A program made the position numbers and the translations under genes. Below are positions 2 through 32,000 of a DNA stretch of 64,000 nucleotides, one piece after another; the stretch's first letter is position 1; every line of letters begins with the position of its first letter. The notes below the pieces were generated by a model that was not told the DNA's origin, did no database searches, and was given only the letters and a program-made list of their open reading frames with translations. The stretch spans positions 1,054,001 to 1,118,000 of the forward strand of contig NW_026250406.1 of assembly GCF_024521635.1 (NCBI RefSeq). The letters run 5' to 3'. The DNA is from Tricharina praecox (taxonomy: Eukaryota).

Positions 2-1674
2 CGTCGTCCTTCGCAGATCGTTCGCCGACAGTCACTGCTGCCGCAGTCCGACAGCAAATTCATCACCGAACTCTACTTCGGCCAGCCAACCCTAGCCGAG
101 GAGGTGGATTCGGACGGTGTTCTTCGGACCGGGCAACAATCCCCGGCCATGACTGCTCGCAAGGTTTGGGTCAAGCGGTGCAACGCATCCCCCACTTCCG
201 TGCTGGTTACCGAAGAGGACTTGGTGGACGATGTCCGTGATTTGATCTTGGGAAAGTATCAGAACACGCTGGGACGGCATTGGGATGCTCCCGACGTACA
301 GGTCCGCATCGTGCCGCGGGGAGCGAGGCCGAGGGCTCACGATCGGAGTCACGAGAGAGGACACGGGTCCGAGCGGATACTGTCTCCGGACGAATCGCTC
401 TTGAGGGTGGTCGAGGAGTACTTTCCCGGGGGACAGCACGCAGATGATGCTCTGATCATTGAGGTTCCAGAACGAAAGACACCGCGGCCATCGCCCGGTC
501 CTGTCATGCATAGCTACACCTACGGAGGCGATCATCACGTCGAGCCGGGCTACTTCGACATTCCGCCACGTCCCGTTCTTAACCGTGGAACCCCAGATCC
601 CACCAACGGCGGACGGGTCGCGCCGATACCTAGCCCCCAATATCCACGGGAACCGCATCGTCCCCAGATAGGCCGCCGGATGGCCACCTCGCCTCCAGTT
701 CAAGGCATCATCCTCGCTCCCAAGGTCCCAGCCGGGAGGTCCCGGGGTGGGTCCGATGCGTCTGCGCCAAATGGAGGTCAGCCACCTCCTGCCCCACCTC
801 TCAAGACTGTCCCGTCTGAAGAAGATCGGTCCCAGAATACCGCCATGTCCACACCCGCCCGGGTCGCGTCGCCACTGCCAATAGGATCCAGGAAGATCAA
901 GGACGTGAAGCAGGCGAACCCAACCCCACCACCGGCGTCAGGGCCGGGGCGACGTTCCGACGGCACGGTACCTCCGATTAAAGTGCTGATCGTCGAAGAC
1001 AACGTCATCAATCTGCGGTTGCTCGAGGCGTTTATGAAACGACTCAAGGTTCGGTGGGAGGCGGCGATGAACGGAAAGATCGCGGTGGATAAGTGGAGAG
1101 CCGGGGGATTCCATTTGGTATTGATGGATATCCAGTTGCCAGTGATGAATGGTCTGGACGCGACCAAGGAGATCCGAAGGTTGGAGAAGGTGAATAGGAT
1201 AAGAGCAGCATTCCCACACACGAAACCGGATGATGAAGACGACGAACCGGTACCGGAGGAGATACCAGAGGCGGACCGCCTGCCCGATTCGATTCTTTTC
1301 AGGTCTCCAGTCATCATTGTTGCCTTGACTGCTTCTTCCTTGCAGAGTGATCGTCACGAAGCGTATGCAGCCGGGTGCAATGACTTCCTAACCAAGGTTC
1401 GTTTCTCTTTCTTGGACCATCTACCTGAACGTGGGTTTGCTGACGTGTTATACAGCCTGTGAATTTCATCTGGTTAGAACGGAAGGTCACCGAGTGGGGC
1501 TGCATGCAAGCCTTGATCGATTTCGATGGATGGAAGACGTGGAAGAAGAGTGCAGAGGAGATGTCTGCGGCCGACGCAACGGTGGCCAAGAACAAACGAC
1601 TAGCTGCAGGTAACAAGACCAAGAAGCTCAAGAATAATGTCGACGATTCTAAGCCCACCACGCCAGCCGGATAA
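2..1674 (+). CDS. SSK1: Two-component response regulator of the HOG pathway (Ssk1/SskA/Mcs4 type), 5'-truncated by the window; exons <2-1396 and 1456-1674
   Basis: The frame is open from position 2 (RRPSQIVRRQSLL...RKVWVKR). The receiver domain is VPPIKVLIVEDNVINLRLLEAFMKRLKVRW...FHLVLMDIQLP...VIIVALTASSLQSDRHEAYAAGCNDFLTK|PVNFIWLERKVTEWGCMQALIDFDGW. A 59-nt intron at 1397-1455 (GTTCGT...GCTGAC...TACAG) restores the conserved TKPV. Confidence 0.93.
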
Positions 1675-5278: not shown

Positions 5279-8200
5279 TCAAAGCTCCACGATCGATTCG
5301 CGAGCTCTCTCTCGGGCGATTCCTCCATATCTCGCCGGATCTGCATTACCGCCGGCGTTATCCTGCAGCAGTAGGAGCTCGACAATCGGCGCGTGACCTC
5401 CCTCGCACGCGGCTTGCAGAGCGGTTCTTCCACACATCGCTGGCTCAGCACCGACATCGGCGCCATTCCGCAGGAGGAACTCGACGACCGATTTGTGGCC
5501 TCCTTCGCACGCGGCCTGGAGAGCGGTTCTTCCATAGCCCCATGCTGGGGGGGGGGGCATTGACATCGGCGTTGTTCCGCGGTAGTAGCTTGGCGATTAG
5601 TCCGTGGCCTCCCTCGCATGTAGCTTGAAGCGCTGTTCGCCCATTAGACGCCGCGGGAGCTGCGTTGACTTCGGCTTTGTGCCGGAGTAGAAGGGAGACA
5701 ATCAACATATGACCACCCTCGCATGCCGCTTGTAGCGCGGTCCTTCCGTCAGTCGCCGCTGGAGGGGCATTGACTTCGGCATTGTTCCGTAGCAGGAGCT
5801 CGACAATCGGCCTGTGACCCCCTTCGCATGCGGCCTGGAGGGCTGTTCTTCCACCCGACGCCGCTGGATCGGCATTGACTTCGGCGTTATTTCGTAACAG
5901 GAGCTCGACAATCGATCCATGGCCTCCCCCGCATGCGGCTTGAAGGGCGGTCCTTCCGTCGGTCGCCGCTAGGTTAGCATTGACTTTGGCTTTGTTCTGC
6001 AGCAGAAGCTCGACAATCGATTCGTGGCCTCTCTCGCACGCGGCCTGGAGAGCAGTTCTTCCACACATCGCTGGATCAGCATTGACATCTGAGTTATTCT
6101 GTAGAAGAAGCTCGACAATCGATATGTGACCGTTTCCGCATGCGGCCTGGAGGGCAGTTCTTCCATAGCCCCATGCTGGAGGCGCATTGACGTCAGCGTT
6201 ATTCAGTAGTAGAAGCTCGACAATCGACCCGTGACCTCCCTCGCATGCAGCTTGAAGAGCGGTTCTTCCGTCAGTCGCTGCTGGAGGGGCATTGACTTCG
6301 GCGTTATTCCGTAAAAGAAGCTCGACAATCGATTTGTGACCTCTCTTACATGCGATCTGGAGGGCGGTTCTTTCATAGCCTCATTCTGGAGGAGCATTGA
6401 CTTCGGCTTGATTCCGTAGTAGAAGCTCGACGATCGATTCATGGCCTTCCTCACATGCGGCTTGCAGGGCGGTTCTTCCATCAGGCGCCGCTGGATCAGC
6501 ATTGATGTTGGCGTTGTTCCGTAGTAAAAGCTCGACAATCGACCCGTGACCTCCCTCGCATGCAGCCTGGAGAGCGGTCCTTCCACTGTTCCATGGTGTA
6601 GAAGCATCGACATCAGCCTTATTCCATAAAAGAAGCTCGGCAATCGATTGGTGGCCGTTCCCACATGCAGCCTGGAGATCAGTTCTCTCATGGGCTGCCG
6701 GCGCCAGGCGTGTTAGAGGAGCATTAGGTTCAGCACCAGCCTGCAGCAGAAGATCGACAATCGATTCGTGACCACTCCTGCATGTGTCTTGCAAAACCGT
6801 CGATTCGCTGGTTATAAAGTTCGGATTCGTGTCGCGGTCGAGTAATAGTTTGACGGCACGGGTCGAACCTTCTCGGCACGCATGCTCGAGCAATGTCCCT
6901 CCAAGCGGTTTCCAATAGTTGTCAATAGTATTGGCACCACATGTCCGGAGCAGCGCATCCACGGCATGATCCTGTCGGGCTAAGATCGCAATCCAGAGGG
7001 CGTTCTCAATATCTTCGACGCTGCACACTCCCCTTTCCAGCAAAAACTCCACCAACCGTGTATGACCGCCATAAGCTACACCAGTCAAGGCACAAAGAAT
7101 CCTGACAATTTTCCCATCGATCTCGACGGAGATTCCGCTACTCCCATCGGCACTCACGCCGTCTTCCAGAAGCAGGGCCACCACATCGTGAAGACCTCTT
7201 GAACTCGCGTGAAGGAGAGCCCGTTTGGGAAACGTGGTTCTGCCAATGCTGCGGAGATGCTTTATGAGAAGAATTGCAACCGAGGTGTGGAGGTTTGTGA
7301 TTGCCGCGATGAGAGGAGTAAACATGCGACAGTCGCAATCGTCATCGTCGTAGGAATAGCAATCACAATCGTGGTTACTGCTAATTTCCGCAGCTGGATC
7401 GGCGCCTTTGTTCAGGAGAGCGGAGACCATCTCGAATGAGCCATATCTGGCGGCGATTAATAGAGGGGTCCTTCCTATAGAATCCCTCGTTTCCATAGTG
7501 CCTTCTTGCTCAAATAGTTGGTCGACGATGTGTGGCCATGAGATCTGCTGAGTCCTGGCCCCCGCATTGGTAACATTCTTCGCTGCCCGACCGTTGAGAA
7601 CGGCTTTCGCGATGAAAGGGCTTTTGGATTTCAACGCACGGTGCAAAGGCGAGAAACGCGGAAGTAACCCTGCCTCCTCATTGAAGCCGTCGAACTGCTG
7701 ACGAAACCGAGTGTACAAGAGCGACAGACGCACCGCCGTCTTTTCAACTGTGGCCACCGCTCCTTCGTCCTCAAACTGGCCATACCAGTTTCTGTAAGAT
7801 TTCCGCACCACTCTTCGTAGACTTCTATGGCAGCTAATATCTCGCCGTTGTCCTCCAGCATCGTAGCAAGCTTCGTAACTGCCCGTTCGTGATATCTAGA
7901 GATGGTGGATACACCGTTGCATCGTGTCGATTCGACTTGCGTGAGGAAGCTGATCACCTTTCGGGAAAGGCTCTCTGCCTCTGCAAGTCGTTGCTGTGAG
8001 GCAAGGGCGGAAACCACTTCTCCTGAGAGAATGACAGCCTGTTTGCTGTACTCGTAGAAGGGCTGGCATGATGTATCGGAGTACCGCTGCGAACCCATTT
8101 TCGAACACTGCTCAAGCAGGGCCAATCTTTGACAGCTATCACTGTAAGATACAATCAGTTCTGGAAATCGATGGAGAAACATACAACATGACTCACCATG

Positions 8201-9664
8201 CTCGAAACACCCATACGGGACATGTGCCCCCTTCTTTGTGGTCCCTAAGTAAGACCTTGCATCCTCGAAAGCCGAAATGCCACTAGGTGACCAAGTGTCA
8301 TCGGTAATTCTTTGTGGCGATGAGGTATTGTCGTAAGGAAGAACCGCTCCGTCTAAGATGGTCAATACTTTCCTCTCCTCGGGGATGTCAGGCAGGTTCG
8401 ACGGTGGGCCTGCCGCAGGGCCCGATGAAGATTTAGCGCGAGGAGAATGGTTGGATTCCTTCAGAGGGCATAGGTTCTCGATTTTCATGTGAATGGGCGA
8501 GGGTCCGGGTGCTTCCGGGGCGTGGGGTAGATGTTCGACTACAGCAGAGTCGGGTTTCGGTGACCCTTGAGATTCTCCGAGGCTGTCATGGGCCTTCTCT
8601 CGTACAGAACTAACTGGATCCTTTGGTCTCCTGATCGCCATCTCTGGCTCAGAACACGGCAAGCCCTTAAAATCGCACCGCTTGCACTTTTCTGGCCATC
8701 GTTGCTCGTCGGGCTCGCACTATAATTCGCCGTTTAGCGTTGGCCGCAATCCCCCAAGCTTTTCGGAGCTTCCATACCTTCTGCTTGCTCTTACGGCACT
8801 GCAGGCATTTGAGACTGGCTAACTTCCTCCTCTTCGTTTCTCCCGGTCCGTCAATCCTGCAGGTGTACCCGAACCCGGTGCATCGTTTGCAGGACGGTGA
8901 ATCCACGGGCCAGTTGCACTGCATCAAGGTTAGAGACACGTTCCACGGAATACAAATACAAGTAGGGTTTTCACCCGTCGGCGGTCTGTTTTGCAGTGCC
9001 AGCACCTCCTTTCAGGCTGCTCCTCTGTACTCCTCCCCCTCTTCCGGCTCACGGCCGAGAGTGCCAGCAGCGCCGATTATAGCTCCGGGGGATTTGATAT
9101 GACATAGCCAAGGTGAGACGGCTGCTGGGATTCGACTTGCGATGGAACTCCCGAAAGTTGCATTCCCTGAGTACATTGTGATCTTTCCAGGACTACAAGA
9201 TGTGATGTGGCCCCTCCTCCTCCTCCCTCTCCTTCTCCTCCTCCTCCTCCCTCTCCTTCTCCTCCTCCTGGCAAAGTCAGTGACGTTCCAGCAAGGCATC
9301 CTCAGACCTGCCGCGAACGATAGACATTAACCGATGCTGGGATAGACAAACCCGAATTCTAAGAAGGAGCATCCAAATCATGTGATTGGGTTTGTATTGG
9401 AGGTTGCACATACTGGACGAGTTGTGGCCCTCCCGAGACCTCAGAATATGACGATGATGTGCCCTCTGCAACTGGTGAAATCAGTGATGTTCCAACAAGA
9501 CGTTTTCAGGTCTTCCAAGATAGCCGCAAACTGATGGTGGAGAGACAACCTGAATTCCGAGAGGAAGGGTGCGAGATATGCGATGGCCACTGGGCTGGAA
9601 TTTTGGGCCAGAGCTCCCCGAACTGAGGGTAATGGCTAAAAGCCGCACTGGAGCTGAAGTCCAT
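5279..9664 (-). pseudogene. Paralogue A: 2x Zn(II)2Cys6 / TPR-like block / ankyrin-repeat protein, disabled
   Basis: Predicted exons 9664-9550, 9471-9352, 9267-8975, 8918-8778 and 8719-5279. Splicing yields CWHCKTDRRR|CNWPVDSPSCKRCTGFGYTC and CLQCRKSKQK|CEPDEQRWPEKCKRCDFKGLPC. These are followed by a TPR-like helical region, several divergent ankyrins and 13 GRTALQAAC-type repeats. Lesions are in-frame TAG 9359-9361, TAA 9077-9079, a frameshift at about 7812, TGA 6381-6383 and a frameshift in the G11 run 5547-5557. Confidence 0.85.
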
Positions 9665-10120
9665 TGGAGTAGCAGTGGCTGAGGGGAGATGTGGAAAGAC
9701 GGGTAAAGAGCTCCATTTTCCGCGGTGGATGTGAAGATATAAACAATTCCCGAGATGTCTTTTGTTATTGCAACCCTAGGCTCTCAGCTCCACACTGGGG
9801 ATGTGCGCGGAGTGCGCGAAGTGCGACGAGTAATGGAGAATTAAGCAGCGTACCAAGTCATCACACGTCGGATGTGTCGCAAGTAGCAAAACGAGTCCCC
9901 CCGCACGCCGGATGAGCAACGACGTGCGCGAAATGCTACCAGGTACCTAATGTACTCTACTCTGGAGCAGCTGTTGGATGGGTGTGTGTAACGGGCAACC
10001 GATCCTGCCCAGTTCGCCTTGTCGTGAGTACGGTATGTACGTGTGTAGAGTATCTCAACTTTGGTTTTCTTTTGTATTCGTGGCAGGTACTATTACAGTA
10101 TGTACGAGTACCGTGGCACT

Positions 10121-10585: not shown

Positions 10586-10897
10586 GAGGCAACAGCCACT
10601 TTCGCTACATATGAGCAGAGGTATAGAATGCCCGCTGTGGATCTAAAAAGGTACCCGGCACCCTCGTCGTTGCGCGATGCCCGCTGCACCGCCACACTAA
10701 TGCTGCGTACAAAACCAATTTTTTTGAAGATAAGCAGTCGACTGGAAAACGAGAGTTCGACAGGGTGAAAGAGAATGCTTTTGTATTTTATTGAAGCACT
10801 GGAGCTCGCTGAGATGCTGCTTTTTCAACTTTTATCACGATTTTTTCGTGGGTTATGTGATCCATCGGTTGAGAAGTAGAATTTTGGTTGGTATTTC

Positions 10898-10960
10898 AGT
10901 AACGAGTCAATCCATTTTAGTGACGAGTCAATCCATTGTAGTGATGAGTCAATCCATTTT
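10898..10960. repeat. 21-bp tandem repeat x3 (AGTRAYGAGTCAATCCATTKT)
   Basis: Three consecutive copies start at 10898, 10919 and 10940. Confidence 0.9.
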
Positions 10961-12331: not shown

Positions 12332-15300
12332 CTACTTCGTTGGGGGTGCATTGACTTCGGCGTTATTCCGCAGCAGAAGCTCGACAATCGATTCGCGACC
12401 TCTCCCGCATGCGACCTGGAGGGCGGTTCTTCCACCATGCACCGCTGGAGGAGCATTGACTTCGGCGTTATTCCGCAGCAGAAGCTCGACAATCGATTCG
12501 TGACCTTCCTCGCATGCGGCCTGGAGGGCGGTTCTTCCACCATCCACCGCTGGAAGAGCATTGACTTCGGCATTATTCCGCAGCAGAAGCTCGACAATCG
12601 ATTCGTGGCCTCTCCCGCATGCGACCTGGAGGGCTGTTCTTCCATTATTCACCGCTGGAAGAGCATTGACTTCGGCGTTATTCCGCAGCAGAAGCTCGAC
12701 AATCGATTCGTGGCCTCTCCCGCATGCGACCTGGAGGGCTGTTCTTCCATTATTCACCGCTGGAAGAGCATTGACTTCGGCGTTATTCCGCAGCAGAAGC
12801 TCGACAATCGATTCGCGACCTCTCCCGCATGCGACCTGGAGGGCGGTTCTTCCACCATGCACCGCTGGAGGAGCATTGACTTCGGCGTTATTCCGCAGCA
12901 GAAGCTCGACAATCGATTCGTGACCTCCCTCGCATGCGACCTGGAGGGCGGTTCTTCCACAAATCTCCGCTGGATCAGCATTGACTTCGGCGTTATTCCG
13001 CAGCAGAAGCTCGACAATCGATTCGCGACCTCCCTTGCATGCGGCCTGGAGGGCTGTTCTTCCACAAATCTCCGCTGGATCAGCATTGACTTCGGCGTTA
13101 TTCCGCAGCAGAAGCTCGACAATCGATTCGTGACCTTCCTCGCATGCGGCCTGGAGGGCGGTTCTTCCACCATCCACCGCTGGAAGAGCATTGACTTCGG
13201 CATTATTCCGCAGCAGAAGCTCGACAATCGATTCGCGACCTCTCCCGCATGCGACCTGGAGGGCGGTTCTTCCACAAATCTCCGCTGGATCAGCATTGAC
13301 TTCGGCGTTATTCCGCAGCAGAAGCTCGACAATCGATTCGCGACCTCCCTTGCATGCGGCCTGGAGGGCTGTTCTTCCACAAATCTCCGCTGGATCAGCA
13401 TTGACTTCGGCGTTATTCCGCAGCAGAAGCTCGACAATCGATTCGTGGCCTCTCCCGCATGCGACCTGGAGGGCGGTTCTTCCATTATTCACCGCTGGAA
13501 GAGCATTGACTTCGGCGTTATTCCGCAGCAGAAGCTCGACAATCGAATCGTGACCTTCCTCGCATGCGGCCTGGAGGGCTGTTCTTCCATTATTCACCGC
13601 TGGAAGAGCATTGACTTCGGCGTTATTCCGCAGCAGAAGCTCGACAATCGATTCGTGACCTTCCTCGCATGCGACCTGGAGGGCTGTTCTTCCATTATTC
13701 ACCGCTGGAAGAGCATTGACTTCGGCGTTATTCCGCAGCAGAAGCTCGACAATCGATTCGCGACCTCTCCCGCATGCGACCTGGAGGGCGGTTCTTCCAC
13801 CATGCACCGCTGGAGGAGCATTGACTTCGGCGTTATTCCGCAGCAGAAGCTCGACAATCGATTTGTGACCTTCCTCGCATGCGACCTGGAGGGCTGTTCT
13901 TCCACCATGCACCGCTGGAGGAGCATTGACTTCGGCGTTATTCCGTAGTAGAAGCTCGACAATCGATTCGCGACCTCCCTTGCATGCGGCCTGGAGGGCT
14001 GTTCTTCCACAAATCTCCGCTGGATCAGCATTGACTTCGGCGTTATTCCGCAGCAGAAGCTCGACAATCGATTCGTGACCTTCCTCGCATGCGGCCTGGA
14101 GGGCGGTTCTTCCACCATCCACCGCTGGAAGAGCATTGACTTCGGCATTATTCCGCAGCAGAAGCTCGACAATCGATTCGCGACCTCTCCCGCATGCGAC
14201 CTGGAGGGCGGTTCTTCCACCATGCACCGCTGGAGGAGCATTGACTTCGGCGTTATTCCGCAGCAGAAGCTCGACATTCGATTTGTGACCTTCCTCGCAT
14301 GCGACCTGGAGGGCTGTTCTTCCACCATGCACCGCTGGAGGAGCATTGACTTCGGCGTTATTCCGTAGTAGAAGCTCGACAATCGATTCGCGACCTCCCT
14401 TGCATGCGGCCTGGAGGGCTGTTCTTCCACAAAACTCCGCTGGAGGAGCATTGACTTCAGCGTTATTCCGTAGTAGAAGCTCGACAATCGATTCGCGACC
14501 TCTCCCGCATGCGACCTGGAGGGCGGTTCTTCCACCATGCACCGCTGGAGGAGCATTGACTTCGGCGTTATTCCGCAGCAGAAGCTCGACAATCGATTCG
14601 TGGCCTCTCCCGCATGCGACCTGGAGGGCGGTTCTTCCATTATTCACCGCTGGAAGAGCATTGACTTCGGCGTTATTCCGCAGCAGAAGCTCGACAATCG
14701 AATCGTGACCTTCCTCGCATGCGGCCTGGAGGGCTGTTCTTCCATTATTCACCGCTGGAAGAGCATTGACTTCGGCGTTATTCCGCAGCAGAAGCTCGAC
14801 AATCGATTCGTGACCTTCCTCGCATGCGACCTGGAGGGCGGTTCTTCCACAAATCTCCGCTGGATCAGCATTGACTTCGGCGTTATTCCGCAGCAGAAGC
14901 TCGACAATCGATTCGCGACCTCCCTTGCATGCGGCCTGGAGGGCTGTTCTTCCACAAATCTCCGCTGGATCAGCATTGACTTCGGCGTTATTCCGCAGCA
15001 GAAGCTCGACAATCGATTCGTGACCTTCCTCGCATGCGGCCTGGAGGGCGGTTCTTCCACCATCCACCGCTGGAAGAGCATTGACTTCGGCATTATTCCG
15101 CAGCAGAAGCTCGACAATCGATTCGCGACCTCTCCCGCATGCGACCTGGAGGGCGGTTCTTCCACAAATCTCCGCTGGATCAGCATTGACTTCGGCGTTA
15201 TTCCGCAGCAGAAGCTCGACAATCGATTCGCGACCTCCCTTGCATGCGGCCTGGAGGGCGGTTCTTCCACCATCCACCGCTGGAAGAGCATTGACTTCGG

Positions 15301-16738
15301 CGTTATTCCGTAGTAGAAGCTCGACAATCGATTCGTGACCTCCCTCGCATGCGGCCTGGAGGGCGGTTCTTCCATGAATCTCCGCTGGATCAGCATTGAC
15401 TTCGGCGTTATTCCGCAGCAGAAGCTCGACAATCGATTCGCGACCTCTCCCGCATGCGACCTGGAGGGCGGTTCTTCCACCATGCACCGCTGGAGGAGCA
15501 TTGACTTCGGCGTTATTCCGCAGCAGAAGCTCGACAATCGATTCGTGACCTTCCTCGCATGCGACCTGGAGGGCGGTTCTTCCACAAATCTCCGCTGGAT
15601 CAGCATTGACTTCGGCGTTATTCCGCAGCAGAAGCTCGACAATCGATTCGTGGCCTCTCCCGCATGCGACCTGGAGGGCTGTTCTTCCATTATTCACCGC
15701 TGGAAGAGCATTGACTTCGGCGTTATTCCGCAGCAGAAGCTCGACAATCGATTTGTGACCTCCCTCGCATGTGGCCTGGAGGGCTATTCTTCCACAAAAC
15801 TCCGCTGGAGGAGCATTGACTTCAGCGTTATTCCGTAGTAGAAGCTCGACAATCGATTTGTGACCTCCCTTGCATGCGGCCTGGAGGGCTGTTCTTCCAC
15901 CATGCACCGCTGGAGGAGCATTGACTTCGGCGTTATTCCGTAGTAGAAGCTCGACAATCGATTTGTGACCTCCCTCGCATGTGGCCTGGAGGGCTGTTCT
16001 TCCACAAAACTCCGCTGCTGGAGCATTGACTTCAGCGTTATTCCGTAGTAGAAGCTCGACAATCGATTTGTGACCTCCCTTGCATGCGGCCTGGAGGGCT
16101 GTTCTTCCACCATGCACCGTTGGAGGAGCATTGACTTCGGCGTTATTCCGCAGCCGAACCTCGACAATCGATTCGTGACCTTCCTCGCATGCGACCTGGA
16201 GGGCTGTTCTTCCACGAATCTCCGCTGGATCAGCATTGACTTCGGCGTTATTCCGCAGCAGAAGCTCGACAATCGATTCGTGACCTTCCTCGCATGCGAC
16301 CTGGAGGGCGGTTCTTCCATGAATCTCCGCTGGATCAGCATTGACTTCGGCGTTATTCCGCAGCAGAAGCTCGACAATCGATTCGCGACCTCTCCCGCAT
16401 GCGACCTGGAGGGCGGTTCTTCCACCATGCACCGCTGGAGGAGCATTGACTTCGGCGTTATTCCGCAGCAGAAGCTCGACAATCGATTCGTGACCTTCCT
16501 CGCATGCGGCCTGGAGGGCTGTTCTTCCACCATGCACCGCTGGAGGAGCATTGACTTCGGCGTTATTCCGCAGAAGAAGCTCGACAATCGATTCGTGACC
16601 TTCCTCGCATGCGACCTGGAGGGCTGTTCTTCCACCATGCACCACTGGAGGAGCATTGACTTCGGCGTTATTCCGTAGTAGAAGCTCGACAATCGATTTG
16701 TGACCTCCCTTGCATGCGGCCTGGAGGGCGGTTCGTCC
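12332..16738 (-). repeat. Coding tandem array of 42 units of 105 bp (last unit ends at the stop after 102 nt), no indels
   Basis: The motif ATTGACTTC recurs every 105 nt from 12350 to 16655. Unit n starts at 16738-105(n-1). Confidence 0.97.
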
Positions 16739-17888
16739 TCCACACTTTGCTGGAAACGAATTGACATTGGAACCAGCAGTCAGTAGATGTTCGACTCTTG
16801 ATTTGTCACCTGCCTCACATGCGGCGTAGAGGGTAGTCCGCCCTATCTCTTCGCTGATACCAGTCGGATGCGGGGGGGAGTTCGCCTTGGCACCGTGCGA
16901 AGATTCCGCATCAGGCAAATGATCGAATTGGTCTGGGCGGTATGGGCTCTCGGCTCTTATAGACGCAGATGAGAATCTCAGGACGTCGGGAGGGGAGGGA
17001 TGACGCTCAATGATGGCGGATGAAGGCGTGAGTGATTTCTGTGATTCGCGAAGACTGTTGTTGCCCTTCTTCGGGTCCGGCCCGATTGGCACGTTCGATT
17101 TTCCGGTCGCCGCCTTCAATCTTCCGGTCGCCAAGGTTGGTGGAGAGCATGGCAAGCCGCGAGCGATGCACAACTTGCACCTTTCTGGCCACTGCCTCTC
17201 GTCAGGTTTGCACTATCACTCACCGTTTTTATGTTAGCGGCAATCCTTTCGAGATCGTTTCAGGCTTCCGTACTTTTTGCTTGCTCTCACGGCATTGCCA
17301 GCATTTGAGACTAGCCAACTTCCTTCTCTTTGGATCTTCGAGTCCATCTATCAGACAGGTATACCCGAACTTCTTGCATCTTTCGCAGGACTGTGAACCC
17401 ATAGGCCAGTTGCACTGCATCAAGATCAGAAAAAATGTTGCCGAGATAAATGGAGAACAATCACCTGTCGATGGTCTTTGGTGCAGTGCGAGCACCTCCT
17501 TAGAAGCTGCTCCCGCGTCCTCCTCCCCCTCTTCCGGTTCATGGCCGAGGACGTTTGCGGCGGTAGTTGCGCTGCGGGGCCTGAAATGGTTTGGACAAGA
17601 TGAGGCGAACATTGTGATTGCGCTTGCGACGGAGCTTCCGGAATTTGTATTTCCTGGAAACGGTCTGGTGTCTCGGGAACCTCTGGATATGATGTAGCCC
17701 CTTCTGCTAACGTGGTCAGTGATATTCCAGTACCACCCTTTAAGTTTTGATCTAATCGTCGACCAATGCGGAATAAACCAACCTAAACTGTGGGAGTGAT
17801 TGTTTAGATCAGGTAGCCACAAACGTGGGAAGTTAAGGCGAACATCCGAAGAATTCTGGTCAAAGTAGATCCTGGAGTTGGAGTCCAT
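12332..17888 (-). CDS. Paralogue B: protein of about 1789 aa with two tandem Zn(II)2Cys6 clusters and 42 highly conserved 35-aa ankyrin repeats, plus one divergent N-cap repeat
   Basis: Exons are 17888-17783, 17706-17465, 17414-17274 and 17212-12332. Introns of 76, 50 and 61 nt have GT..AG ends and branch-like CTGAC/CTGAT/CTAAC, and all phases are compatible. The spliced product contains CSHCTKDHRQ|CNWPMGSQSCERCKKFGYTC and CWQCRESKQK|CKPDERQWPERCKLCIARGLPC, then the repeat GRTALQxACxxGxxSIVELLLRNNAEVNAxxxxxx. Exon 1 is the least certain part but is mirrored in paralogue A. Confidence 0.88.
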
Positions 17889-19442
17889 TGGTGTAGCGGC
17901 TGCGAGAGGGTGGCAGAATAGTAGGAAGTACAGAGCTCCATCTCCGGAGGGTGGATATGTGAAGATATAGAAAACCTTCGAGGTAGCCTTTGCTTTTGTG
18001 ATACCAAGCTTTCGCCTCCCAATGAGGGATTGCGCAACATGCGGCGGCGAATGGAGCTTGTGGGGTAGAGGGGAACATCCCGCACTTTGCGCATGTTGCG
18101 AATTGCGACGTGCGACGTGCGACGTGCGCAAAGTGCCAATGGCCCCAGCCGCCAGATCTTTTGCAAGGGTGTTTGGACAGGCTGACATTGTGGCGCCTCC
18201 AGTTAGCGGCGTGTGGAGGCAAGGCTGACGAAAGTCCTCAGCACCGCTCTCAACCGCCAACAGCCAACCCCGAGGCTCGTCACTCCTTATTCTGTCTGAC
18301 GGAAAGACATCAGGCTCGAGGTAAGAAGAGGAGCTACGGCCAGTGGTGATGGTAGTTGTTACTATTGGAGAGTCACGCAGTTCTGATTCTTCTTCAGGCG
18401 GAACCCCTGTTCAGCCTGTCTGAATATCCAAACAACGATCTACCGGTAGTGGAGTGCCCCAACGTCGCTTCTCTTTTCCGGCCGCTACATGTTATGAGGT
18501 TATATCGAGATAATCCGTGCGAAGTGATTGGAAACGGAACCATCGCCACGGTAAGGGCTACTACTCTACTCTACATACCTACTCGTGGCGGGCATCTGAT
18601 ATGCAGTAGGTATTCGGACACACCAAAGGAGTGTGGGTGGGCACCAAAACGAGAAATAAAACACGCCATCCGGATACATCATACGTGCCACGAGTAGGTA
18701 GGTATGCAGGTCGGAAATCCCCACATGCGCGCACCATCTTATTCGCCCACATTGTCGGAAAGAACCGCCAGATACAAAGTACAAGGTACTTACCCAGCTG
18801 GCTTACTAAGTTCACGACCACGGTGGCCCAAGCAGCCGGAAGACGGTATTTTCCAACTGGCCTGTGTGCGACGCTCGCTACATATGATTACTAGTATGTA
18901 GTAACTATCGCCCACCTTTCCGCCGCGAAGCTTCCCTGGACTGTATCTAGAAGATGAGGTAAGCTTTCTGCAGCGCAAATTCCCTGGCGACCATACAATG
19001 TATGTATATACATACAGTACTTGTACAGTACATAGGCCCTGCGAGATTGGGGGCTGTGCATCGATCCTGCTTGGCGCTTGTCCTAGCGTCATGGGGAAGC
19101 TGGAGCCTCGGAAGGCGTCTATGACTTCTTTCCCCAGTCTCATTAGCAGTCTATTGCACAAAATTAGAGTAATAGATTGAAGGCTAGCCTCGTTCCAGCG
19201 CGACCGGTTGGCTCTTATGAAGCAATGACGATGATCTATACGTAATATGTATGTAGGCAGGTATGTTGATGTGAGGAAGTTATGAGAGCGGCAGTCAGCC
19301 GTGATGAATGGGCTCATTACTATATAGGAGACGAGGTAGCCGCCATCAACGTGATGATGAAACCCCATGGAACAAGAGTACCATCACAGAGCCCTTGAAG
19401 GAGTGTCCACAAATCAACACTACCACTGCAGTACATTAGGTA

Positions 19443-23251: not shown

Positions 23252-25174
23252 CTATCTAGTGCCTATAGCGCCCGGTCCGGGAGAATATCCATCGCCGATA
23301 GAACGCATGTCCAATGGTGACCGGAGATCCGGCGTGGTTCCCGAGTAAAAGGCCGAGCCGGTGGTTGGGATACCGGGAGGCAAGCGTGACGTGGGCTGCG
23401 AACCACCGAGTATGCCGCCACGGCCGAATATGCTGTTCTGTTCCCTCAGCGGCGTCGAAGAGCCATTCCCGAACAATCCGGGTGGAGGACCGGTGGGGTC
23501 GCTAGAAGTTGGAGTGGACAACGACATCTGACGGGATGGCGCCGGAAGTCCCGGTGGAGCACGCACGGTTGGACTATTGAAGCCATGGGAAGGAACACCG
23601 CTCGCTCCAGAGATGGAGCCGTTCACTTTCGGCGCACCGGGATTGGCTGGGCCGGTTGGGTGTGAACGCACGCCAAGAGGGTTCTTGGAGAAACTGAGCC
23701 GCACACCACCCTTTGTGCTGTTGGACAACGCCCGCCCGTAGAGCTCGGTCAGAGCCTTGGTGGCGTAATGAGTGTCTTCGAATTCGACGAAACACATGGG
23801 ACCCTGGGGTTTCGTGCGGAAACACATCCTCTTGTAACCACGCTGTCGGCAAAACATTGCCTTCAACTCGTCCTCCGATGTCTGCGCCGGAAGATTACCA
23901 ACGTACAGGGTGTTGCACGGAGGGTTCTGGTCGGCGGGATTGGCTGGAGGGTGCGAGATGGGGAAGTTGTTGGCATAGTACTGCTTGTTAACCGCCGAGG
24001 CCGGCCAACCGTTTGGCGAGTTGACAGACATTGGCGAAGTTAATCCCGGCGCAGCAACAGGGGGCGCGGTGAGGGGCGATGTGATCCCTGCCTGCGAATA
24101 TCCATTCACACCGACCGTGGAGAGTGGTGGCAAGCCGCCAAAGCGGCTGGTGGTGGGCTGGGCGGGATTGGTCTGCCGGCGAGGCCTCGCGAAGGATAAG
24201 GGGTCGTAATTCTCTCCGGAGTCGTGATCCAGCGTCATTCCGCGGCTGGGAAGGAGATTGGCCATGTTGTCGAGATAACTGTCGGCCAGGAAGGCGTTCT
24301 CGTAACCGTTAGCGCCACCAAGACCGTTCATGCCACCGTTCATCTGGTCGTTAACACTCAGTCGGTCCAACGCAGCCACCATGGCATCTGACGCAGGGGT
24401 CCCGTTCCCGTTGGTGTTTCCACCGACCCGCCCCATCCCGTTCATGCTCGGGAAAACGTCGTTGCCAAGACCGGAGTCGGTCCTACCGATCACACCGTTG
24501 CCCGTGTGACCGTTACCCATGGGTGATGTTAAGTGACGGGAAGCCACAGTTGTATATTCGCTCAATGGCTTCGTACCGATGGTGCCGGGGGTAGTCAGGC
24601 CATCCGAGCTCGAGGGTGACTGCGATGTGAAGTCGGGTGCAAACATCTCCAGAGAGGCTGCCATCGCAACGATCTCGGATGGAGTGGGCCTGGGGACCAT
24701 CGCGACAGTGATGTTGTGTCCGTTGAACTCTTTGCCGTTCAGCAGTCGCTCGGCCTCCTGTGCGCATTCCGCGTTCTGGAGACGCACATACGCGTCGGTC
24801 GAGTACGGACCCTTTACCGCCGGGTCGCTTCGAATGATCCTGACATCCTCAAATCCAACGCTGAAGATGAACATCGTCTTGACCTCCTTCGCCGTAACAC
24901 TGGCGGCCAGACGATCGATCTTGACACCATTCCATTCCCTCGAAGGCGATCCAAAAAAGTCCATCAGATCGTTTGCTCCAGGCGAAGGCGGGCTGTAGCG
25001 CCGCGGTGTCGCAGAGCTGCTGACCGACAGTGGGGCGGTAGTGTGGTCACCACCGCCGGGCATCATACGTGAAAACGCCAGCGATTCCGGCATCCAATTC
25101 AGACTCTGGAGAATGGAAGATTGTTGATTTGAGGGTGAGGAACCCATGCCGGATGCCCCTGGAGGGGTTTGCAT
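23252..25174 (-). CDS. WHI3: Whi3/Whi4/Scw1-family RNA-binding protein (RRM), 640 aa, apparently intronless
   Basis: Signature [21 protein letters not shown]...[25 protein letters not shown]...[26 protein letters not shown], a second degenerate N-terminal RRM and low-complexity G/N/P/S linkers. Confidence 0.92.
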
Positions 25175-28100
25175 GATTTGTAGTAGCGGTGTAGTGGTGT
25201 TTTAAACGCCTTTATTTATTTTTTCTCCGGTAATTTTTTCTTTTCTTTTCCGGTTTGGTTGAAGAAGCCGATGATCGCGCGGAACCCGGTATTTGTCGCA
25301 AGTAGATCTTTGCGCGAGTAGAAATAACGAGCGTTGATCAAAGCTTGTGTCGCTGAGTACTATCGAGACCCGAAAACCCGAGAGAATTCCACGTTTTTTT
25401 CCGCGGTGCCTTCCGGGTTATTTGCGATTCAAACTAGCAGGCTGTCGCGGGTGGGAGAATAGCGGGGGGAGGGATGGCGTTGTCGTTGTTACTGTTGTTT
25501 TGATGCCGATAACGAAGGCCGTAACCGAGGGGGAAAACTGCAGTCTTGTGAGATAAACCGCACGCACGCACACACACACCCAGACTCCTCCTACGCCCAA
25601 AATGCGGTGGAACAAAGACTTACAGTCACGGAAAGAAAGAGAAGATGGCTAGTACCGAGTAGATGCGCGTGGCAGGACCGGATCCGTAGTCGAAAAAAAC
25701 TTTACTTGAAATTCGTCGCGAAGCGCAGAGACCAGCAGCGGCGGTGTTTTTTTTTAATTTATCGCGGTTGGTGACGCGCGCAAAGATCAGATGGCGAGCG
25801 AAGAGCGACCGAGCGAGTGGGTAGGGTGAGCGATGGATCGCAAAGAGAGCAGAGCAGCAACCGGGAGTGCGCGACAGCGGAGACGGATGCGACAAGGGGA
25901 AAAGATGATCCTCGTGACGAAGAGAAGTCGAGTGGACAAAGGATCCGAAGAGAAAGCGATCGATGCGCGCGGCGATTTCGAAGGCGAACGGGCAGGTAGG
26001 CGTGTGGGAGGGATTTGTTGGGTTTGGGGTTTTGGATGTGGACGGGTTGGTTGGTTGATGCGGTTGCGGTGCGGTTGCGATGCGGCGCAGAGTGGGAACG
26101 GACGATTGATTAATGCCTGTACAAGCAGATGGGTTTCGCTGACGATGATGATGCTGATGCTTCTGGTGCTAGGGGGCCTATTTTTTTTCTTTCTTTCTTT
26201 TCTTTCTTTCTTTTCTTTCTTTCTTCCAATAAAGTTCAACTGCGATTTCGCGACACCGAGCAGAGTCTATCGACGGAGTCCGAGAGCGCGCTCCTAATGG
26301 TGCTGGGCCGTGAGCCGTAGATTTCGGAGGTGTAAATGTGGGGAGAAGTGCGGGCGCCGGAGGGTTTTTGGGGTTGGTGTGTGGAGCAGGAGGAGGTGGT
26401 GCAGGATGTGGAGGAGGAGAGGAGGTGGAGGGAGACAGAGGGGACTGACTATCGAAGAAGGGCGACAAGGAACAAACGAGACGTAGAAGGGAGGAGGAGA
26501 TGGCCGTGGTGGGAGATGGTGGCCTGCGATGGGGGAGGGTGTGTGGTGGGTTGGGGTGGTGGGAGGTGGGTGATGGGTTGGGGGTGGTAGGTGTGGTAGG
26601 TGGTGGGTTGGGGTTGGCGCCTTTGGACGAGCGAGAGAGCGACTGGGGAGCGAGGGGGTGTGCTCGGTGGTATGTATGGGAAGCAGTTAGGATGAAGTGA
26701 CTACTAACTCTATGGTATGCTACCAGATGATCAGGGTGTGTAGAGTGTCCAAAGGGAATGGATATGAGTGAATGGGGTGGTGGAAGGGTGGAAGGTTGGA
26801 AGGGGGCGATGGGGGCGATGGGGTGATGGGGTGAATGGGGGGTGGGTGGTGGGGAGGGGCAGGGCAGGAAGACAGTCAGGCTCGAGGGGCCCGTCCAAAT
26901 GGGATGGACTGGACGATGGCCGAATGGATGAGGCAGGTAGGCAAGGTCGTGAGAAGAGAGTATGTGTGCATATGCGAGTGTGTGTGTTGCGAGGGCGTGT
27001 GTGCACACTCCGGTAGGTATGGTTGAGAAAGGCCAGGCGAGCAAGAGGCGCCGAGTTTCTTTCTTCCCTCATTCTTTCTTCTTTCTCTTGTTGTTGTTGT
27101 TTCTTCTGCAGCCTTCGAGAATCGACAATCGAGACTCGAGTCTTCTTTCTTTCTGCCCTTGTTCCCTCGCTTTCTTTCTCCCTTGTTCCATCCAACTGCC
27201 CCCTCCCCAACGCGATGATGCCCAATCCGCAAATAACCTCTCGTCCGCATCCAAGTTCCGTTCCATCTCTGTCCACAGTCGGAGTAGGCAGTTGTCCAGG
27301 CTCCATCAAGGTATGCATATCCCCCCTTCCATGCAGCTACCAAACGAAACGGAGAGTATGCCATCGGTGGGGGGTGGGGGGATCTAGGTACTCCAGTATG
27401 GCAGTAGAGTAAGCCAAACAGAGTGCTGAGGGCTTCTGTGAGATAGAGTACTATACACTAGCAGTACAGTAGAAGCTTAACCCTTCCTTGCGTCGTCGTC
27501 GTCGGTGAGGAGTCACATAAGCATAGAGCGAGAAGCACTATCGACGTAACCGTTCCCTATGTACATATCGTCACCGTGGTCCGTACGAGTGCGTGTGCGT
27601 GTGCTGACGAGTGAGTGAGTGCGTATAACCCACAAAGAAGTGTTACCCCCCGATGCATCTACTCTAGTGGCTATGCTCAACGGGTTCTGGAGGTTCGATT
27701 GAGACGCAACCCATCATAGGTGGTACACCGTACCATAGAGCAAGCAGCAGAACCCTAGCCCCGTAACAAACCGTCCATGCGCTTTGCGCACGACCACAAC
27801 GCCATCCCTCGTCTCGATCGTCTCCGACACCTCACCTTCGTCGGCAGCACGCTCTCCAATTCTTCGGGATTCGCTCTCTAACGAGTGTCTATGATGCGCC
27901 TTTGACCTTTCCAAGAGGCCGATCTTGACGTCTTGACGTCTTCTTGGTGGGGGCCGATGCACTGTTGCACCGGTGCACCGAGGGGGCCTTTCGGGGGGTG
28001 GAGGCTTGGTGACTGGTCAAGCCAGCAGAGCTGCAGATCCACCATCGCGTATCTGATCACCTTCTGAGGTGGCGCTGTTGACATTCTTCGGTGCACTACG

Positions 28101-28904: not shown

Positions 28905-29030
28905 CTTCTGCTTCTGCTTCTGCTGCTTCTGCTGCTGCTTCTGCTGCTGCTTCTGCTGCTGCTTCTGCTGCTGCTTCTGCTGCTGCTTCTGCTGCTGCTT
29001 CTGCTGCTGCTTCTGCTGCTGCTTCTGCTG
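28905..29030. repeat. (CTGCTGCTGCTT)n minisatellite, about 10 units
   Basis: Read directly; it produces the spurious poly-L/A/C/S ORFs in the track. Confidence 0.95.
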
Positions 29031-32000
29031 GCAATCCTACTCCACCTCCACCACGGCACCACCACGGCACCACCACCACCACACATCGCGCGCGCCGTCT
29101 CGCAACGGAACCGCCGGCGCACACTGCACAGGCGGACAAAGCAAAGAAACACAGGAGGGAGGGAAAGTGAAGGAAAAAAGGAAAAAAGGAAAAAGCACGG
29201 TTCCGCTGCTCTAGGTACCGAAACTTCTACCGAAAGAGAAAAAAGAAGAAATAATAAAAGAAAGAAGAAAACAAGTCTAAAGTAAAGTCTGGTTGGCTGG
29301 CTGCCCTTCCAACATAGGTAGAGTAAGCATCGTTCCAAAGCTCGAGCGACGTGATGACAACGTAGGCGTGTACTCTAGGTAGAGTACGTACAGATGGTAG
29401 GTACGGTACCTTTGGTAGGTAGGGCAGAACGAGCAACGAGCAACGAGTGGAGTTTGTGGAGTTGTGGAGCGGATTATTATGTAGAGTACATACCAGCAGG
29501 CAATGCCCGCACCCGCATGCATTCGATGTCATTCATTTCCACTAACTAACCACTCACTCTAGAATACGGTACGGTACCGTATGTAGCTGTGAGAGGAGAG
29601 GGGAACCACCCCCTTCGTATGTAGAGTACGCACTCACTCAGCTCAACTCCCCTGCGTAAGCGCTGTAACAAGCAAGCAAGCAAGCAGGCAAGCAGGCAGG
29701 CAGGCCAGCATATGCACATCGCCATTGCGTGCACACGCTCTACTACTAGTATCGAGGTTCTGCACCTCCCGTCTTACTTAAACTCCGTCCTATTTTTCAG
29801 AACAAGTGCGAACAAAATTTAAACGAGGTTCTGCAGCGCCCGTCATAACGTTTCGTTCTTGGCATTGCATAACCCATCCAAACCCCCAAAAAGTCAGTCG
29901 GGTGGCGGGGCGAGGCGACCCATAACCAGCCAAAGCCACAACCAACAACCCACGGTGATGCCGTGACACCGCGACGCTACGACACGCAAATCAACCGTTC
30001 ACCAGAGAAAAAACCCCCCATTTGTAGCGACCGTAGGGAATTTGATTTGATGCGAACGACGTAATAGAGTCCATATTGAACTGAAGTCTTGATAGTGATG
30101 GTTGTGGGAGTTCTCTCTCTGTACCTCCGCGCGCGCACCACAGGAGCCTCTGACATGAGTTGTGGCTGAATTCTCAATCAGGTAGTTTGTTTACGTCTTG
30201 GGAGCATAGGACGGACAGGGGTTACGCCCAATTTTTCCTGTGCATACTTTGCCCGGCGTCGTCAGCCTCGTCCATAGCCTCGAGGATGTGCTTGACTTTA
30301 ATCCCGACACCCGCCCCTGCACCACCCCTGCAACCCTCCGTTGCTGTGACGACCTATGTAAGACGGGCGGTGCAGAACCTCGATAGTAGTAACTCTAGTA
30401 ACTCTACATAGTAACTCTAGTAATTCCTAGTGAACTTTGGAGGTTATTCGTACCGTATGTACCCTAAATACCCACTGTGGGACTCGGGAGGCCAGACCCG
30501 ATGCGGTTGCCTCAACGTTGAAATGTCCTCCTCCTCTGTTGCTACTTTCATGTTCGTCTAGTCGGTTGGCCCCTAGAACACGCGAGGCATAGACATTATC
30601 ACCACCATCAGGCATTATTAGTTCAACATCGCGGAGATACTTTGAGGCTGTTCGGCCCGAAGAACACAGGCTGCTTGATTTTCTTGTTGCATTCTAGTCA
30701 ATTCAATCGGTCTCACCAGTTGCCCGTACCCGTCGGAGGTCTCTCAATACCCACCTATGCAAGTCTCGCCCGCTCGGACCGGAAGCACTGCTAACAGATG
30801 TCACTTTCACTTTTGCGCAGAGTTCACCAGAGTTCACCTCCAGATCCAGATCTAATCACCGATTACCGTATTTTACCTCCTCCCTGAGCCCTCCTCGCTC
30901 CTCACTTCGAATCGAGTTGGGTCGAGTCGAGTCGAGTCGAGTCGAGTTGAGTTAAGTTGAGTCGGCCATCCTCCCCTGGGTCCTCCCAGTCAGCTGCATT
31001 ACTGCATTGGTCGGTTAATCGATGGGTACGGTGGTCACGTGAGAAATAAGCAGTGCTAATTAGTACCCGGGTGCTCTGGAATAGGTAGTTTGCGCTGCCG
31101 GAAGATTCGTAAGGAACTGGCATCTGGTAGATACCTGTCCTTAAACCCCTATTAGAGTAACTTGTCTGTGCCTGGCTACTCTAACTAGTGGCTGCATCAA
31201 AGTCACGATCCGTTTGCAGTATATGGTAACCGTCCCCTCAACTCCATGTACTATTCAGTATTGGCCTTATTCATCATTGAACGTGATACCTACATTACTT
31301 GTCTATTAGGTATACCTAGTATGTATAATAGGTACTACCTCCCACAAAACATCATCCAGACACTCGTGACCCCCTACCGTACTGCGTACTCCGGAGACGC
31401 GTGGACAAGTTACAAGTTACAACTTCTGCTTTTGTTTTGTTTTTTTGTTTTTTAGTTCAATCAAGCAACTCGTCACTCGAGCGAGTGATACTTAGTGAAT
31501 AACAAATTTCACTTCCGCAGCACGCTGCACGCACCGGCACCATGGGGGAGTGATAGGTACTATATTTGGAAAGGAAAGGAAGAGATGCCACTATTTCGGC
31601 GGACCTGGAGACGCGTCCATTGCCGGACGAGTGCTAGATCATGGCCGGCTACCGGGCTACGGATCCACTGTGCCTAGTAGGTACATAGGACCCAGCACCC
31701 AGCACTTCCTCCGGGACCACGGCATCGAAGGCGTCGGTATGCGGACCCCAACCCAGCCCAATAGACCTATATACTCTCGAAATGGCCATGTATGTCTACC
31801 GACCGTACTGGTGCAGGCTGTCAGTGGTCAGGACAAGACATTACACGCGAGCCACCTAGGTAGTTGACAGTTGGAGATCGTCGACCCCCACGGATTACTC
31901 CACCAGCTCTAGGCATGTACCAGTACCGCGTGTACCATGGTCCATACGTTACTAGCGCTTTCCGAACATACGGTTCTACATACGCGCGGATTCAACCTCC

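Follow-up and report, generated by a model that had tools for sequence, protein, structure and literature searches.

The closest described counterparts of the array reported here are the ankyrin (ANK) repeat domains of fungal NOD-like receptors (NLRs; NOD stands for nucleotide-binding oligomerization domain), in which shuffled hypervariable repeats are thought to let the receptors diversify recognition quickly. According to the part of the Dyrka 2014 survey available to us (PMC4986451), 10% of the ANK repeats of fungal NLRs show high internal conservation (HIC), and 60 to 70% of the HIC ANK, TPR and WD repeats of the Dikarya belong to NLR-like proteins. The same part of that survey describes repeat-number polymorphism of HIC arrays between Podospora isolates, places the positively selected and polymorphic sites of HIC ANK repeats on the concave face, within inner helices and at the hairpin/loop, and chooses a protein of 21 repeats as the one with the most HIC ANK motifs. 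High internal conservation is attributed to unequal crossing-over or related recombination in the available part of Ament-Velasquez et al. 2025 (PMC12222747); both papers are cited below for those parts. Here we describe an array of 42 near-identical ANK repeats from Tricharina praecox, encoded on the minus strand of a 64,000-nucleotide stretch of DNA (NCBI RefSeq assembly GCF_024521635.1, contig NW_026250406.1, positions 1,054,001 to 1,118,000), which we call the window and whose own numbering we use throughout. We put at about 70% the probability that this array forms a variable protein- or peptide-binding groove, shaped by concerted evolution and diversifying selection and re-dealt by recombination within the array.

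Tandem Repeats Finder recognized a single array at 12341-16742, with a period of 105 nucleotides (nt), 41.9 copies, 91% matches, 0% indels and a score of 6851. The array lies in a minus-strand frame that is free of stops from 17212 to the stop codon at 12332..12334. In that frame the motif G-R-[TI]-A-L-Q occurs 42 times and all 41 spacings are exactly 35 amino acids (aa), which confirms the count of 42 units, with unit 1 starting at 16738, proposed in an earlier reading of the bare letters (the sequence-only reading). The 35-aa (105-nt) units occupy 12335..16738 (minus strand) in phase, codon c of unit k beginning at 16738-105(k-1)-3(c-1). Unit 42 is shortened by the stop codon, which lies immediately 3' of its loop, and no separate C-terminal capping repeat follows it in this frame. 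At the other end, 16739..16843 (minus strand) encodes a degenerate first ankyrin repeat resembling an N-cap (Pfam Ank, E value of 0.037, residues 124-151 of a 158-aa piece). Among the 41 full units, on which the counts of modules and distinct units are based, 31 are distinct at the DNA level and 26 at the protein level. The mean nucleotide identity between units is 0.913, and amino acid identity averages 0.836 between pairs and 0.868 to the consensus over 1435 aa. Measured against the HIC definition, about 85% likeness or more over at least 100 aa, the array falls inside by its identity to the consensus and is borderline by its pairwise identity. No variation of any kind occurs at 19 of the 35 unit positions, and the scaffold was thus rightly described as nearly invariant. 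The array also contains long open reading frames (ORFs) in its other frames, those of the opposite strand included, which reach 503 aa (12437-13948 on the plus strand, and others); they are by-products of a repeat unit that lacks stops in several frames and do not count as evidence of genes.

Against this uniform background, amino acid variation reaches appreciable frequency at only nine codons, namely, codons 7, 10, 11, 13 and 14, at the end of helix 1 and in the turn, and codons 30, 33, 34 and 35, in the inter-repeat loop. At the nucleotide level, 31 of the 105 sites vary, and at 22 of them the minor allele is found in at least two units. The variation takes the form of discrete modules, 11 for the helix and 10 for the loop. 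All of the modules listed in the sequence-only reading are present, as are four singleton loop variants that it had missed, and the eight pairings that it gave for the helix module VACGRGRE (units 4, 13, 16, 22, 25, 29, 34 and 38) are all correct. The core di-residue at codons 10 and 11 has four alleles, EE in 15 units, GR in 13, KG in 9 and EG in 4. Nine of the 10 singleton variants fall in units 1-10 (16738-15689), an edge effect expected of unequal crossing-over, in which the edges of an array are homogenized less. The rarer modules (KGGHK, ATCEGGHK and the EFC loops) are also concentrated there, and the interior is more homogenized. The array as a whole is acidic, with an isoelectric point (pI) of 5.36 and a net charge of about -50; the variable codons contribute between -5 and +2 per unit, and since the scaffold is neutral, the whole charge of the array comes from them. 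Repeat-induced point mutation (RIP) was rejected as the main source of the variation, a CpA/TpG context being found in only 3 of 15 C-to-T or G-to-A changes (37 changes in total). The persistence of a 4.4-kb array at 91% identity without a RIP-type bias suggests that RIP is weak or absent here or that its products are selected against.

The arrangement of the modules carries a clear footprint of recombination. Unit nucleotides 88-103 form a tight linkage block, with Cramer's V values of 0.6 to 1.0 and no four-gamete pair within it, and the synonymous sites 72 and 75 are linked to this block; nt 20-40 form a looser one. All four gametes are present in 121 of the 231 informative site pairs, including nearly every pair between the helix and loop blocks. 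They are present in 74 of the 153 biallelic pairs, the minimum number of recombination events (Rm) is 6, and r2 decays with distance (r of -0.35, permutation p of 0.0002). A helix module is unassociated with the loop that follows it (permutation p of 0.23, or 0.74 without the 10 later-copy units of duplicated blocks), whereas it is associated with the loop that precedes it (p of 0.0007, or 0.015 without the same 10 units). The independence of the helix and the following loop implies that the invariant nt 43-87 host most exchange resolutions, the short G-R-T-A-L-Q stretch being a weaker divider between the blocks. Each module also has its own linked synonymous markers, such as T72 with LPAVDG, T75 with the EFC loops and C36 with GRGH, from which it follows that the modules have been copied as haplotypes and did not arise by recurrent mutation. 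Block duplications are visible as exact matches, of 442 bp at a lag of 18 units, 288 bp at 11 and 271 bp at 9.

These results divide the earlier claim that two modules recombine freely. Helix and following-loop alleles are indeed not in complete linkage, and for that junction the claim stands. It does not hold for the preceding loop, nor for units 16-18, 25-27 and 34-36, which are copies of one duplicated block and hence not independent recombination events. Likewise, the loop behaves as a single tight block, but the helix block is split by four-gamete intervals at 9-20, 20-32 and 32-40 into at least three assorting parts. A simple higher-order periodicity was rejected as the cause of the mosaic, since only lags 9 and 18 gave a modest dip in distance, for which three duplicated blocks account. 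The mosaic is best read as recombination inside the invariant stretches.

The nine variable codons differ from the 26 scaffold codons in the kind of change that they carry, as well as in its amount. In pooled Nei-Gojobori estimates, the synonymous diversity (piS) was 0.067 and the ratio of nonsynonymous to synonymous divergence (dN/dS) over the whole unit was 1.44. The nonsynonymous diversity (piN) was 0.32 at the nine variable codons and 0.0077 in the scaffold; dN at the variable codons was 6.0 times the pooled dS, and the scaffold gave a dN/dS of 0.09 to 0.11. When the minimum numbers of changes were counted, the variable codons required 1 synonymous and 20 nonsynonymous changes and the scaffold 8 and 8, mostly singletons (Fisher p of 0.0023). 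Among codon alleles found in at least five units, none was synonymous and 17 were nonsynonymous at the variable codons, compared with 4 and none in the scaffold. The sequence-only reading, in which most differences were said to change the amino acid and dN was expected to be raised at the variable codons, is therefore upheld on this point, and the diversity at the nine codons is most likely kept by diversifying selection.

Several lines of evidence identify the fold. The Pfam profiles Ank_2 and Ank matched a piece holding the first units with 162.3 bits (cut-off of 27.3) and 104.4 bits (cut-off of 21.1), respectively. In a single-sequence AlphaFold 2 model of units 13-20, each stretch of 35 aa forms two helices, with a predicted local distance difference test score (pLDDT) of 74.5 and a predicted template-modelling score (pTM) of 0.71. 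Foldseek found 427 matches to this model with E values of 0.001 or less, headed by designed ankyrin repeat proteins (DARPins), FEM1 and ankyrin-1, with template-modelling (TM) scores of up to 0.67. Sequence matches in the PDB reached an E value of 2.8e-79; DARPin fusions were the best of these, and the 24-repeat domains of ankyrin-1 and ankyrin-2 and NOMPC were also among the best.

DARPins are said to vary at positions 2, 3, 5, 13, 14 and 33 of their repeat. We placed the variable codons on that scheme through a phmmer alignment to a DARPin fusion, 5le2 (DARPin D12). Codons 34 and 35 align with DARPin positions 2 and 3, and codons 10 and 11 with positions 13 and 14, at all of which the DARPin repeats also differ from each other. 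Codon 30 falls at or beside position 33, another DARPin variable position, the alignment having a 2-aa insertion here. Thus, five of the nine variable codons align to DARPin variable positions. One more, codon 7, aligns to position 10, which is randomized in the ANK-N5C library according to the available part of its description (PMC4308713). Codons 13, 14 and 33 correspond to DARPin positions 16 and 17 and to the insertion or position 1, none of which is a library position, and the invariant arginine at codon 2 corresponds to position 5, variable in DARPins and fixed here. DARPins bind through randomized positions on their concave surface, as the accessible part of PMC8229355 states. From this alignment, the variable codons are likely to lie on or beside the ankyrin face that holds the ligand, in agreement with the binding face to which the sequence-only reading had assigned them.

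The array is the end of an expressed and spliced gene with three introns. The open frame of its last exon has no ATG upstream of the repeats, and contigs from four public sequencing runs were compared with 16600-19400. Two of the runs, X1 and X2, are DNA; the type of the other two, X4 and X5, could only be guessed, and we took them as RNA-derived because their contigs carry GT..AG joints. Three such minus-strand joints were found; X4 and X5, each from a different study, share two of them in their spliced contigs, and the third occurs in X4 only, while contigs from both DNA runs are colinear across all three. In the direction of transcription, the gene (all on the minus strand) has an upstream exon at 17783..18188, coding or 5' untranslated region (UTR), which is covered by RNA-type contigs to at least 18043, is open to an ATG at 18188 and gave no Pfam match. 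An intron of 79 nt (GT..AG, 17704..17782, seen in X4 and X5) is followed by an exon at 17465..17703 with a basic stretch, a candidate start codon (ATG at 17542) and the opening half of a six-cysteine motif. A 50-nt intron (GT..AG, 17415..17464, X4 and X5) precedes an exon of 47 codons (17274..17414) that ends motif 1 with its second half and begins motif 2 with its first, and a 61-nt intron (GT..AG, 17213..17273, one spliced contig from X4) separates this from the last exon, which starts with the second half of the second Zn2Cys6-type motif (17147..17212). A linker of about 100 aa without a family match (16844..17146) connects this head to the degenerate repeat; it weakly resembles the corresponding stretch of a neighboring paralogue (33% over 81 aa and 36.7% over 128 aa).

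Zn2Cys6 zinc clusters follow the spacing C-x2-C-x6-C-x5-12-C-x2-C-x6-8-C. The spliced frame contains two tandem matches to this pattern, preceded by the basic stretch, and a control with 50 shuffles gave 0.02 matches per shuffled window. The unspliced six-frame window contains four overlapping matches, all within one Cys/Phe simple repeat from about 28915; this repeat (28915-29050, plus strand) translates in one frame into stretches of Cys and Phe and is an artefact for the cysteine-pattern test. Pfam Zn_clus gave a partial match on the single 47-codon exon, the motifs being split by introns, with 13.1 bits and an E value of 0.11 against a cut-off of 21. This match pairs residues 9-23 of the exon with profile positions 19-33 of 39, the part expected of the second half of motif 1. 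The head region is basic (pI of 9.99), and from the cysteine pattern we consider it quite probable that it is of the Zn2Cys6 type. Pfam detected no NACHT, NB-ARC or other NOD domain in any of the exons and ORFs up to 19383, nor the middle-homology domain of fungal-specific transcription factors in the exons and ORFs. Residues 1-160 of the N-terminal region gave one match among proteins of 893-2842 aa, through the ankyrin part only. The 158-aa N-terminal piece matched none of 702 longer candidate proteins, and a scan of metagenome contigs with it yielded 329 pattern matches of which none was confirmed. In the protein searches, the N termini of the gene and of its paralogue had no detectable relatives beyond this locus.

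The repeats themselves have many relatives. A search with units 13-20 yielded 83 proteins with E values of 1e-20 or less among 130 candidates, the best being the paralogue, at 71% identity, and uncharacterized ankyrin proteins at 54 to 64%. NLR-type domains (PF05729 NACHT, PF24883 NPHP3_N and PF22939 GPIID_WHD) occur in 22 of the 83, and the zinc-cluster family PF00172 in none of them. One relative, P0004 from Cordyceps javanica, combines DUF7708 and NPHP3_N/NACHT with an array whose units are of this type too. Twelve units were detected in it, nine of them of 35 aa. The units are 93% alike over their first 29 residues and vary at positions 7, 10, 11, 22, 26, 30 and 32-35, overlapping the variable positions of the T. 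praecox array.

In light of these results, we propose a protein with a basic N terminus carrying two tandem Zn2Cys6-type motifs, a linker of about 100 aa, one degenerate repeat and 42 near-identical repeats. Unequal crossing-over, gene conversion between units, or both would keep the scaffold uniform, synonymous sites included, and the same exchange process would duplicate blocks of units and re-deal a small number of old haplotypes, those of the loop as a tight block and those of helix 1 as a looser one. Diversity would be retained at the nine codons on or beside the ligand face, most likely through diversifying selection, and every rearrangement would then present a long binding groove whose charge and shape follow a new pattern. 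By analogy with the repeat domains of fungal NLRs, the array may serve as a variable protein- or peptide-binding sensor. The cysteine motifs suggest that the head binds DNA, in which case the output would be transcriptional and would not be driven by NOD oligomerization. Should the head function as a zinc cluster, the gene would couple gene regulation to a sensor that diversifies rapidly. Taking this one step further, the locus could represent a NOD-less branch of hypervariable-repeat receptors, with a 42-unit HIC sensor and a double Zn2Cys6 head, in which recognition of a variable protein or peptide, be it non-self, a partner or an effector, leads to transcription and specificity is re-dealt between strains; we regard this as a tentative and rather doubtful extension.

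A number of points weigh against the proposed groove. The data come from one array in one genome, whereas repeat-number polymorphism and allelic diversity define the NLR regime. The nine codons were picked after the data had been viewed, dN/dS among repeats that exchange sequence is a non-standard test, though one used in the literature on such repeats, and the whole-unit ratio comes from 35 codons only. The predicted structure is only of moderate quality, its pLDDT falling to 48-67 in the loops, and codons 13, 14 and 33 are off the positions randomized in DARPins. The Zn2Cys6 assignment rests on the cysteine pattern; the 47-aa cysteine exon matched no PDB sequence with an E value of 10 or less, and the ESM Atlas gave no usable match. 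Unit order, finally, depends on the assembly, and assemblies of HIC arrays from short reads are described as unreliable in the available part of PMC12222747.

The explanation that competes most directly is neutral concerted evolution, in which the nine codons are unconstrained surface, unequal crossing-over yields the mosaic as a by-product, diversity is not selected for and the array, expanding and possibly dispensable, is no sensor. Block duplications and the edge effect are indeed what purely mechanical turnover produces, the N terminus has no detectable relatives outside the locus, and the array of the paralogue carries an in-frame stop, which means that members of the pair can decay. Yet neutral codons homogenized together with the scaffold should sit near the synonymous diversity of 0.067, and the observed piN is 0.32; the common alleles at these codons are exclusively nonsynonymous, purifying selection acts strongly on the scaffold (dN/dS of 0.09) and the frame is intact over 4.4 kb, and the NLR-linked array of P0004 varies at the same positions. 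We consider neutrality unlikely on this evidence. It is somewhat less likely still that the assembly misleads us, with the number or order of units wrong and the free assortment partly due to mis-joined reads, an error under which a variable groove would still be possible. Published tests, in the part of PMC12222747 available, did find HIC repeats mis-assembled from short reads, and the contigs of all four runs end inside unit 1. Against an artefact, all 42 units are in phase without an indel or a stop, and the module haplotypes with their linked synonymous markers are independent of unit order. A protein identical to the neighboring one is encoded on a 1.72-Mb contig, which suggests a long-read assembly. 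In the two DNA runs, moreover, the summed word depth of the repeat bin is about 37 times that of the flank (300.4 against 8.1 in X1 and 130 against 3.1-3.8 in X2), a weak hint that fits about 40 copies, word depth not being itself a copy number.

Two further explanations concern what such an array does. It might be a mechanical or scaffolding solenoid of the kind found in ankyrin-R/B or NOMPC, in which length matters and the variable residues are incidental; 42 repeats far exceed the need of a single binding site, and the 24-repeat domains of ankyrin-1 and ankyrin-2 and NOMPC are among the best sequence matches. The repeats of ankyrin-R/B and NOMPC are diverged, however, and not homogenized with raised dN at binding-face codons, and we hold this account to be improbable. 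The sequence-only reading had also raised, as a more speculative alternative, a code resembling that of transcription activator-like effectors (TALEs), in which the variable residues of every repeat would recognize a single unit of a polymer, be it DNA, RNA or some other periodic ligand, and the zinc-cluster head would serve as an anchor. The array is long and uniform, only four di-residue alleles occur in the core at codons 10 and 11, and the head is basic (pI of 9.99) and of a DNA-binding type. The fold is that of ankyrin, though, the variation extends over nine codons in two blocks and not one di-residue, and a pI of 5.36 with a net charge of about -50 suits nucleic acid poorly. We know of no ankyrin-nucleic acid code, although no dedicated search for one was made. 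Because the array is acidic and has the ankyrin fold, the suggestion finds no support, and it is the least probable of the explanations considered. The variable protein- or peptide-binding groove thus remains the reading that we prefer.

A tandem ankyrin paralogue at 5282..9221 (minus strand), 3.6 kb from the gene described above, offers a built-in comparison. Its 5' part is 70.5% identical at the DNA level to 17168-17708, and the six-cysteine motifs and exon layout are kept; the motif exon, where conservation is highest, is 72% identical in amino acid sequence, and the flanking exon parts are 44% and 37% identical. The paralogue consists of a double six-cysteine head, a linker, about 450 aa of middle region without a counterpart in the 42-unit gene and a diverged array, at which the homology of the two genes stops. 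That array is 69 to 84% identical at the nucleotide level to the consensus of the 42 units and has an in-frame stop at about 6381. Pieces of its ORFs, in stretches compared by eye, match letter for letter the public protein P0003, named ankyrin repeat-containing domain protein [Tricharina praecox] by NCBI, and a representative search gave 100% identity over residues 27-174 of the paralogue query ORF. This representative search, made with the 362-aa ORF of the paralogue, gave three matches, two of them models of the same gene and the third marginal (E value of 1.3e-4). The public model P0003 (964 aa) starts at an internal methionine just past the cysteine motifs, which it omits, treats as spliced away some coding sequence with similarity to the relatives P0002 and P0009, and spans the stop in the array with a short "intron"; a second model, P0085 (336 aa), represents the first ORF only. 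With the public model of the paralogue mis-built in this way, and no protein found in the protein searches that matches the N terminus of the 42-unit gene, architectures of this kind are easily missed.

Upstream of the first exon shared by the paralogues, a patch of 100 nt at 17872-17969 is 74% identical to 9648-9741 and might represent a conserved 5' UTR, a promoter element or an exon lying further upstream. A 21-bp tandem repeat of 3.2 copies (10893-10960) lies in the spacer that separates the two genes. Elsewhere in the window, an open-ended ORF at 2-1462 (plus strand) has a response-regulator receiver domain (PF00072, 65 bits) and probably represents the last part of either a hybrid histidine kinase or a response regulator, and an ORF of 649 aa at 23252-25201 (minus strand) has an RNA recognition motif (PF00076, 53.8 bits).

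Among known systems, the array comes closest to the HIC ANK domains of fungal NLRs, with which it shares near-identical units, few variable codons, which lie in the hairpin/loop and on the inner helix, and indications both of positive selection and of shuffling through recombination between repeats. It differs from them in that the transcript is without NACHT, NB-ARC or NPHP3_N and has a double six-cysteine head of the zinc-cluster type instead. The 42 units are twice the number in the 21-repeat protein picked as richest in such motifs, and the unit has 35 aa where 33 to 34 are reported as typical, both by the available part of Dyrka 2014 (PMC4986451). The WD40 repeats of the Podospora anserina HNWD family (het-e, het-d and het-r) likewise evolve in concert by unequal crossing-over; as the part of PMC12222747 at hand describes them, they have hypervariable codons under diversifying selection and their repeat combinations set specificity, but unlike the array described here, they form a beta-propeller, belong to an NLR architecture and have a known ligand and phenotype. 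DARPins and ANK-N5C share with the array an invariant consensus scaffold that is diversified in the beta-turn and where helix 1 ends. Unlike them, the array is natural, with 35-aa units, a 2-aa insertion in the loop and a fixed arginine at DARPin position 5; it also varies at positions 16-17, has only four or five alleles per block and not full randomization, and is one molecule of 42 units where a DARPin library is a set of short molecules. The earlier comparison with a natural DARPin-like library thus holds for recombination within the invariant stretches, but the regime itself was already known from fungal NLR repeats, at least as the available part of PMC4986451 presents them. A library in the proper sense would have to be spread over alleles or strains. 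TALE arrays are also long and made of near-identical units of 33 to 35 aa with few variable residues, but they have another fold, one di-residue per unit and basic repeats that wrap DNA, whereas the present repeats are ankyrin repeats, acidic and variable in two blocks. With the Zn2Cys6 (Gal4-type) transcription factors of fungi, the head shares its six-cysteine spacing, its basic surroundings and its N-terminal position, and differs in having two tandem motifs and, at the C terminus of the protein, a giant ANK array. We found no description in the literature of a Zn2Cys6-ankyrin fusion of this kind, which is weak evidence of its absence from print. By analogy with the NLR repeats, the "combinatorial code" is the expected footprint of the published HIC regime and not a new phenomenon. 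What is new is its setting, an expressed gene with three introns, with tandem Zn2Cys6-type motifs and no NOD domain and with a diverged paralogue nearby, which makes this locus a clear non-NLR case of an HIC array.

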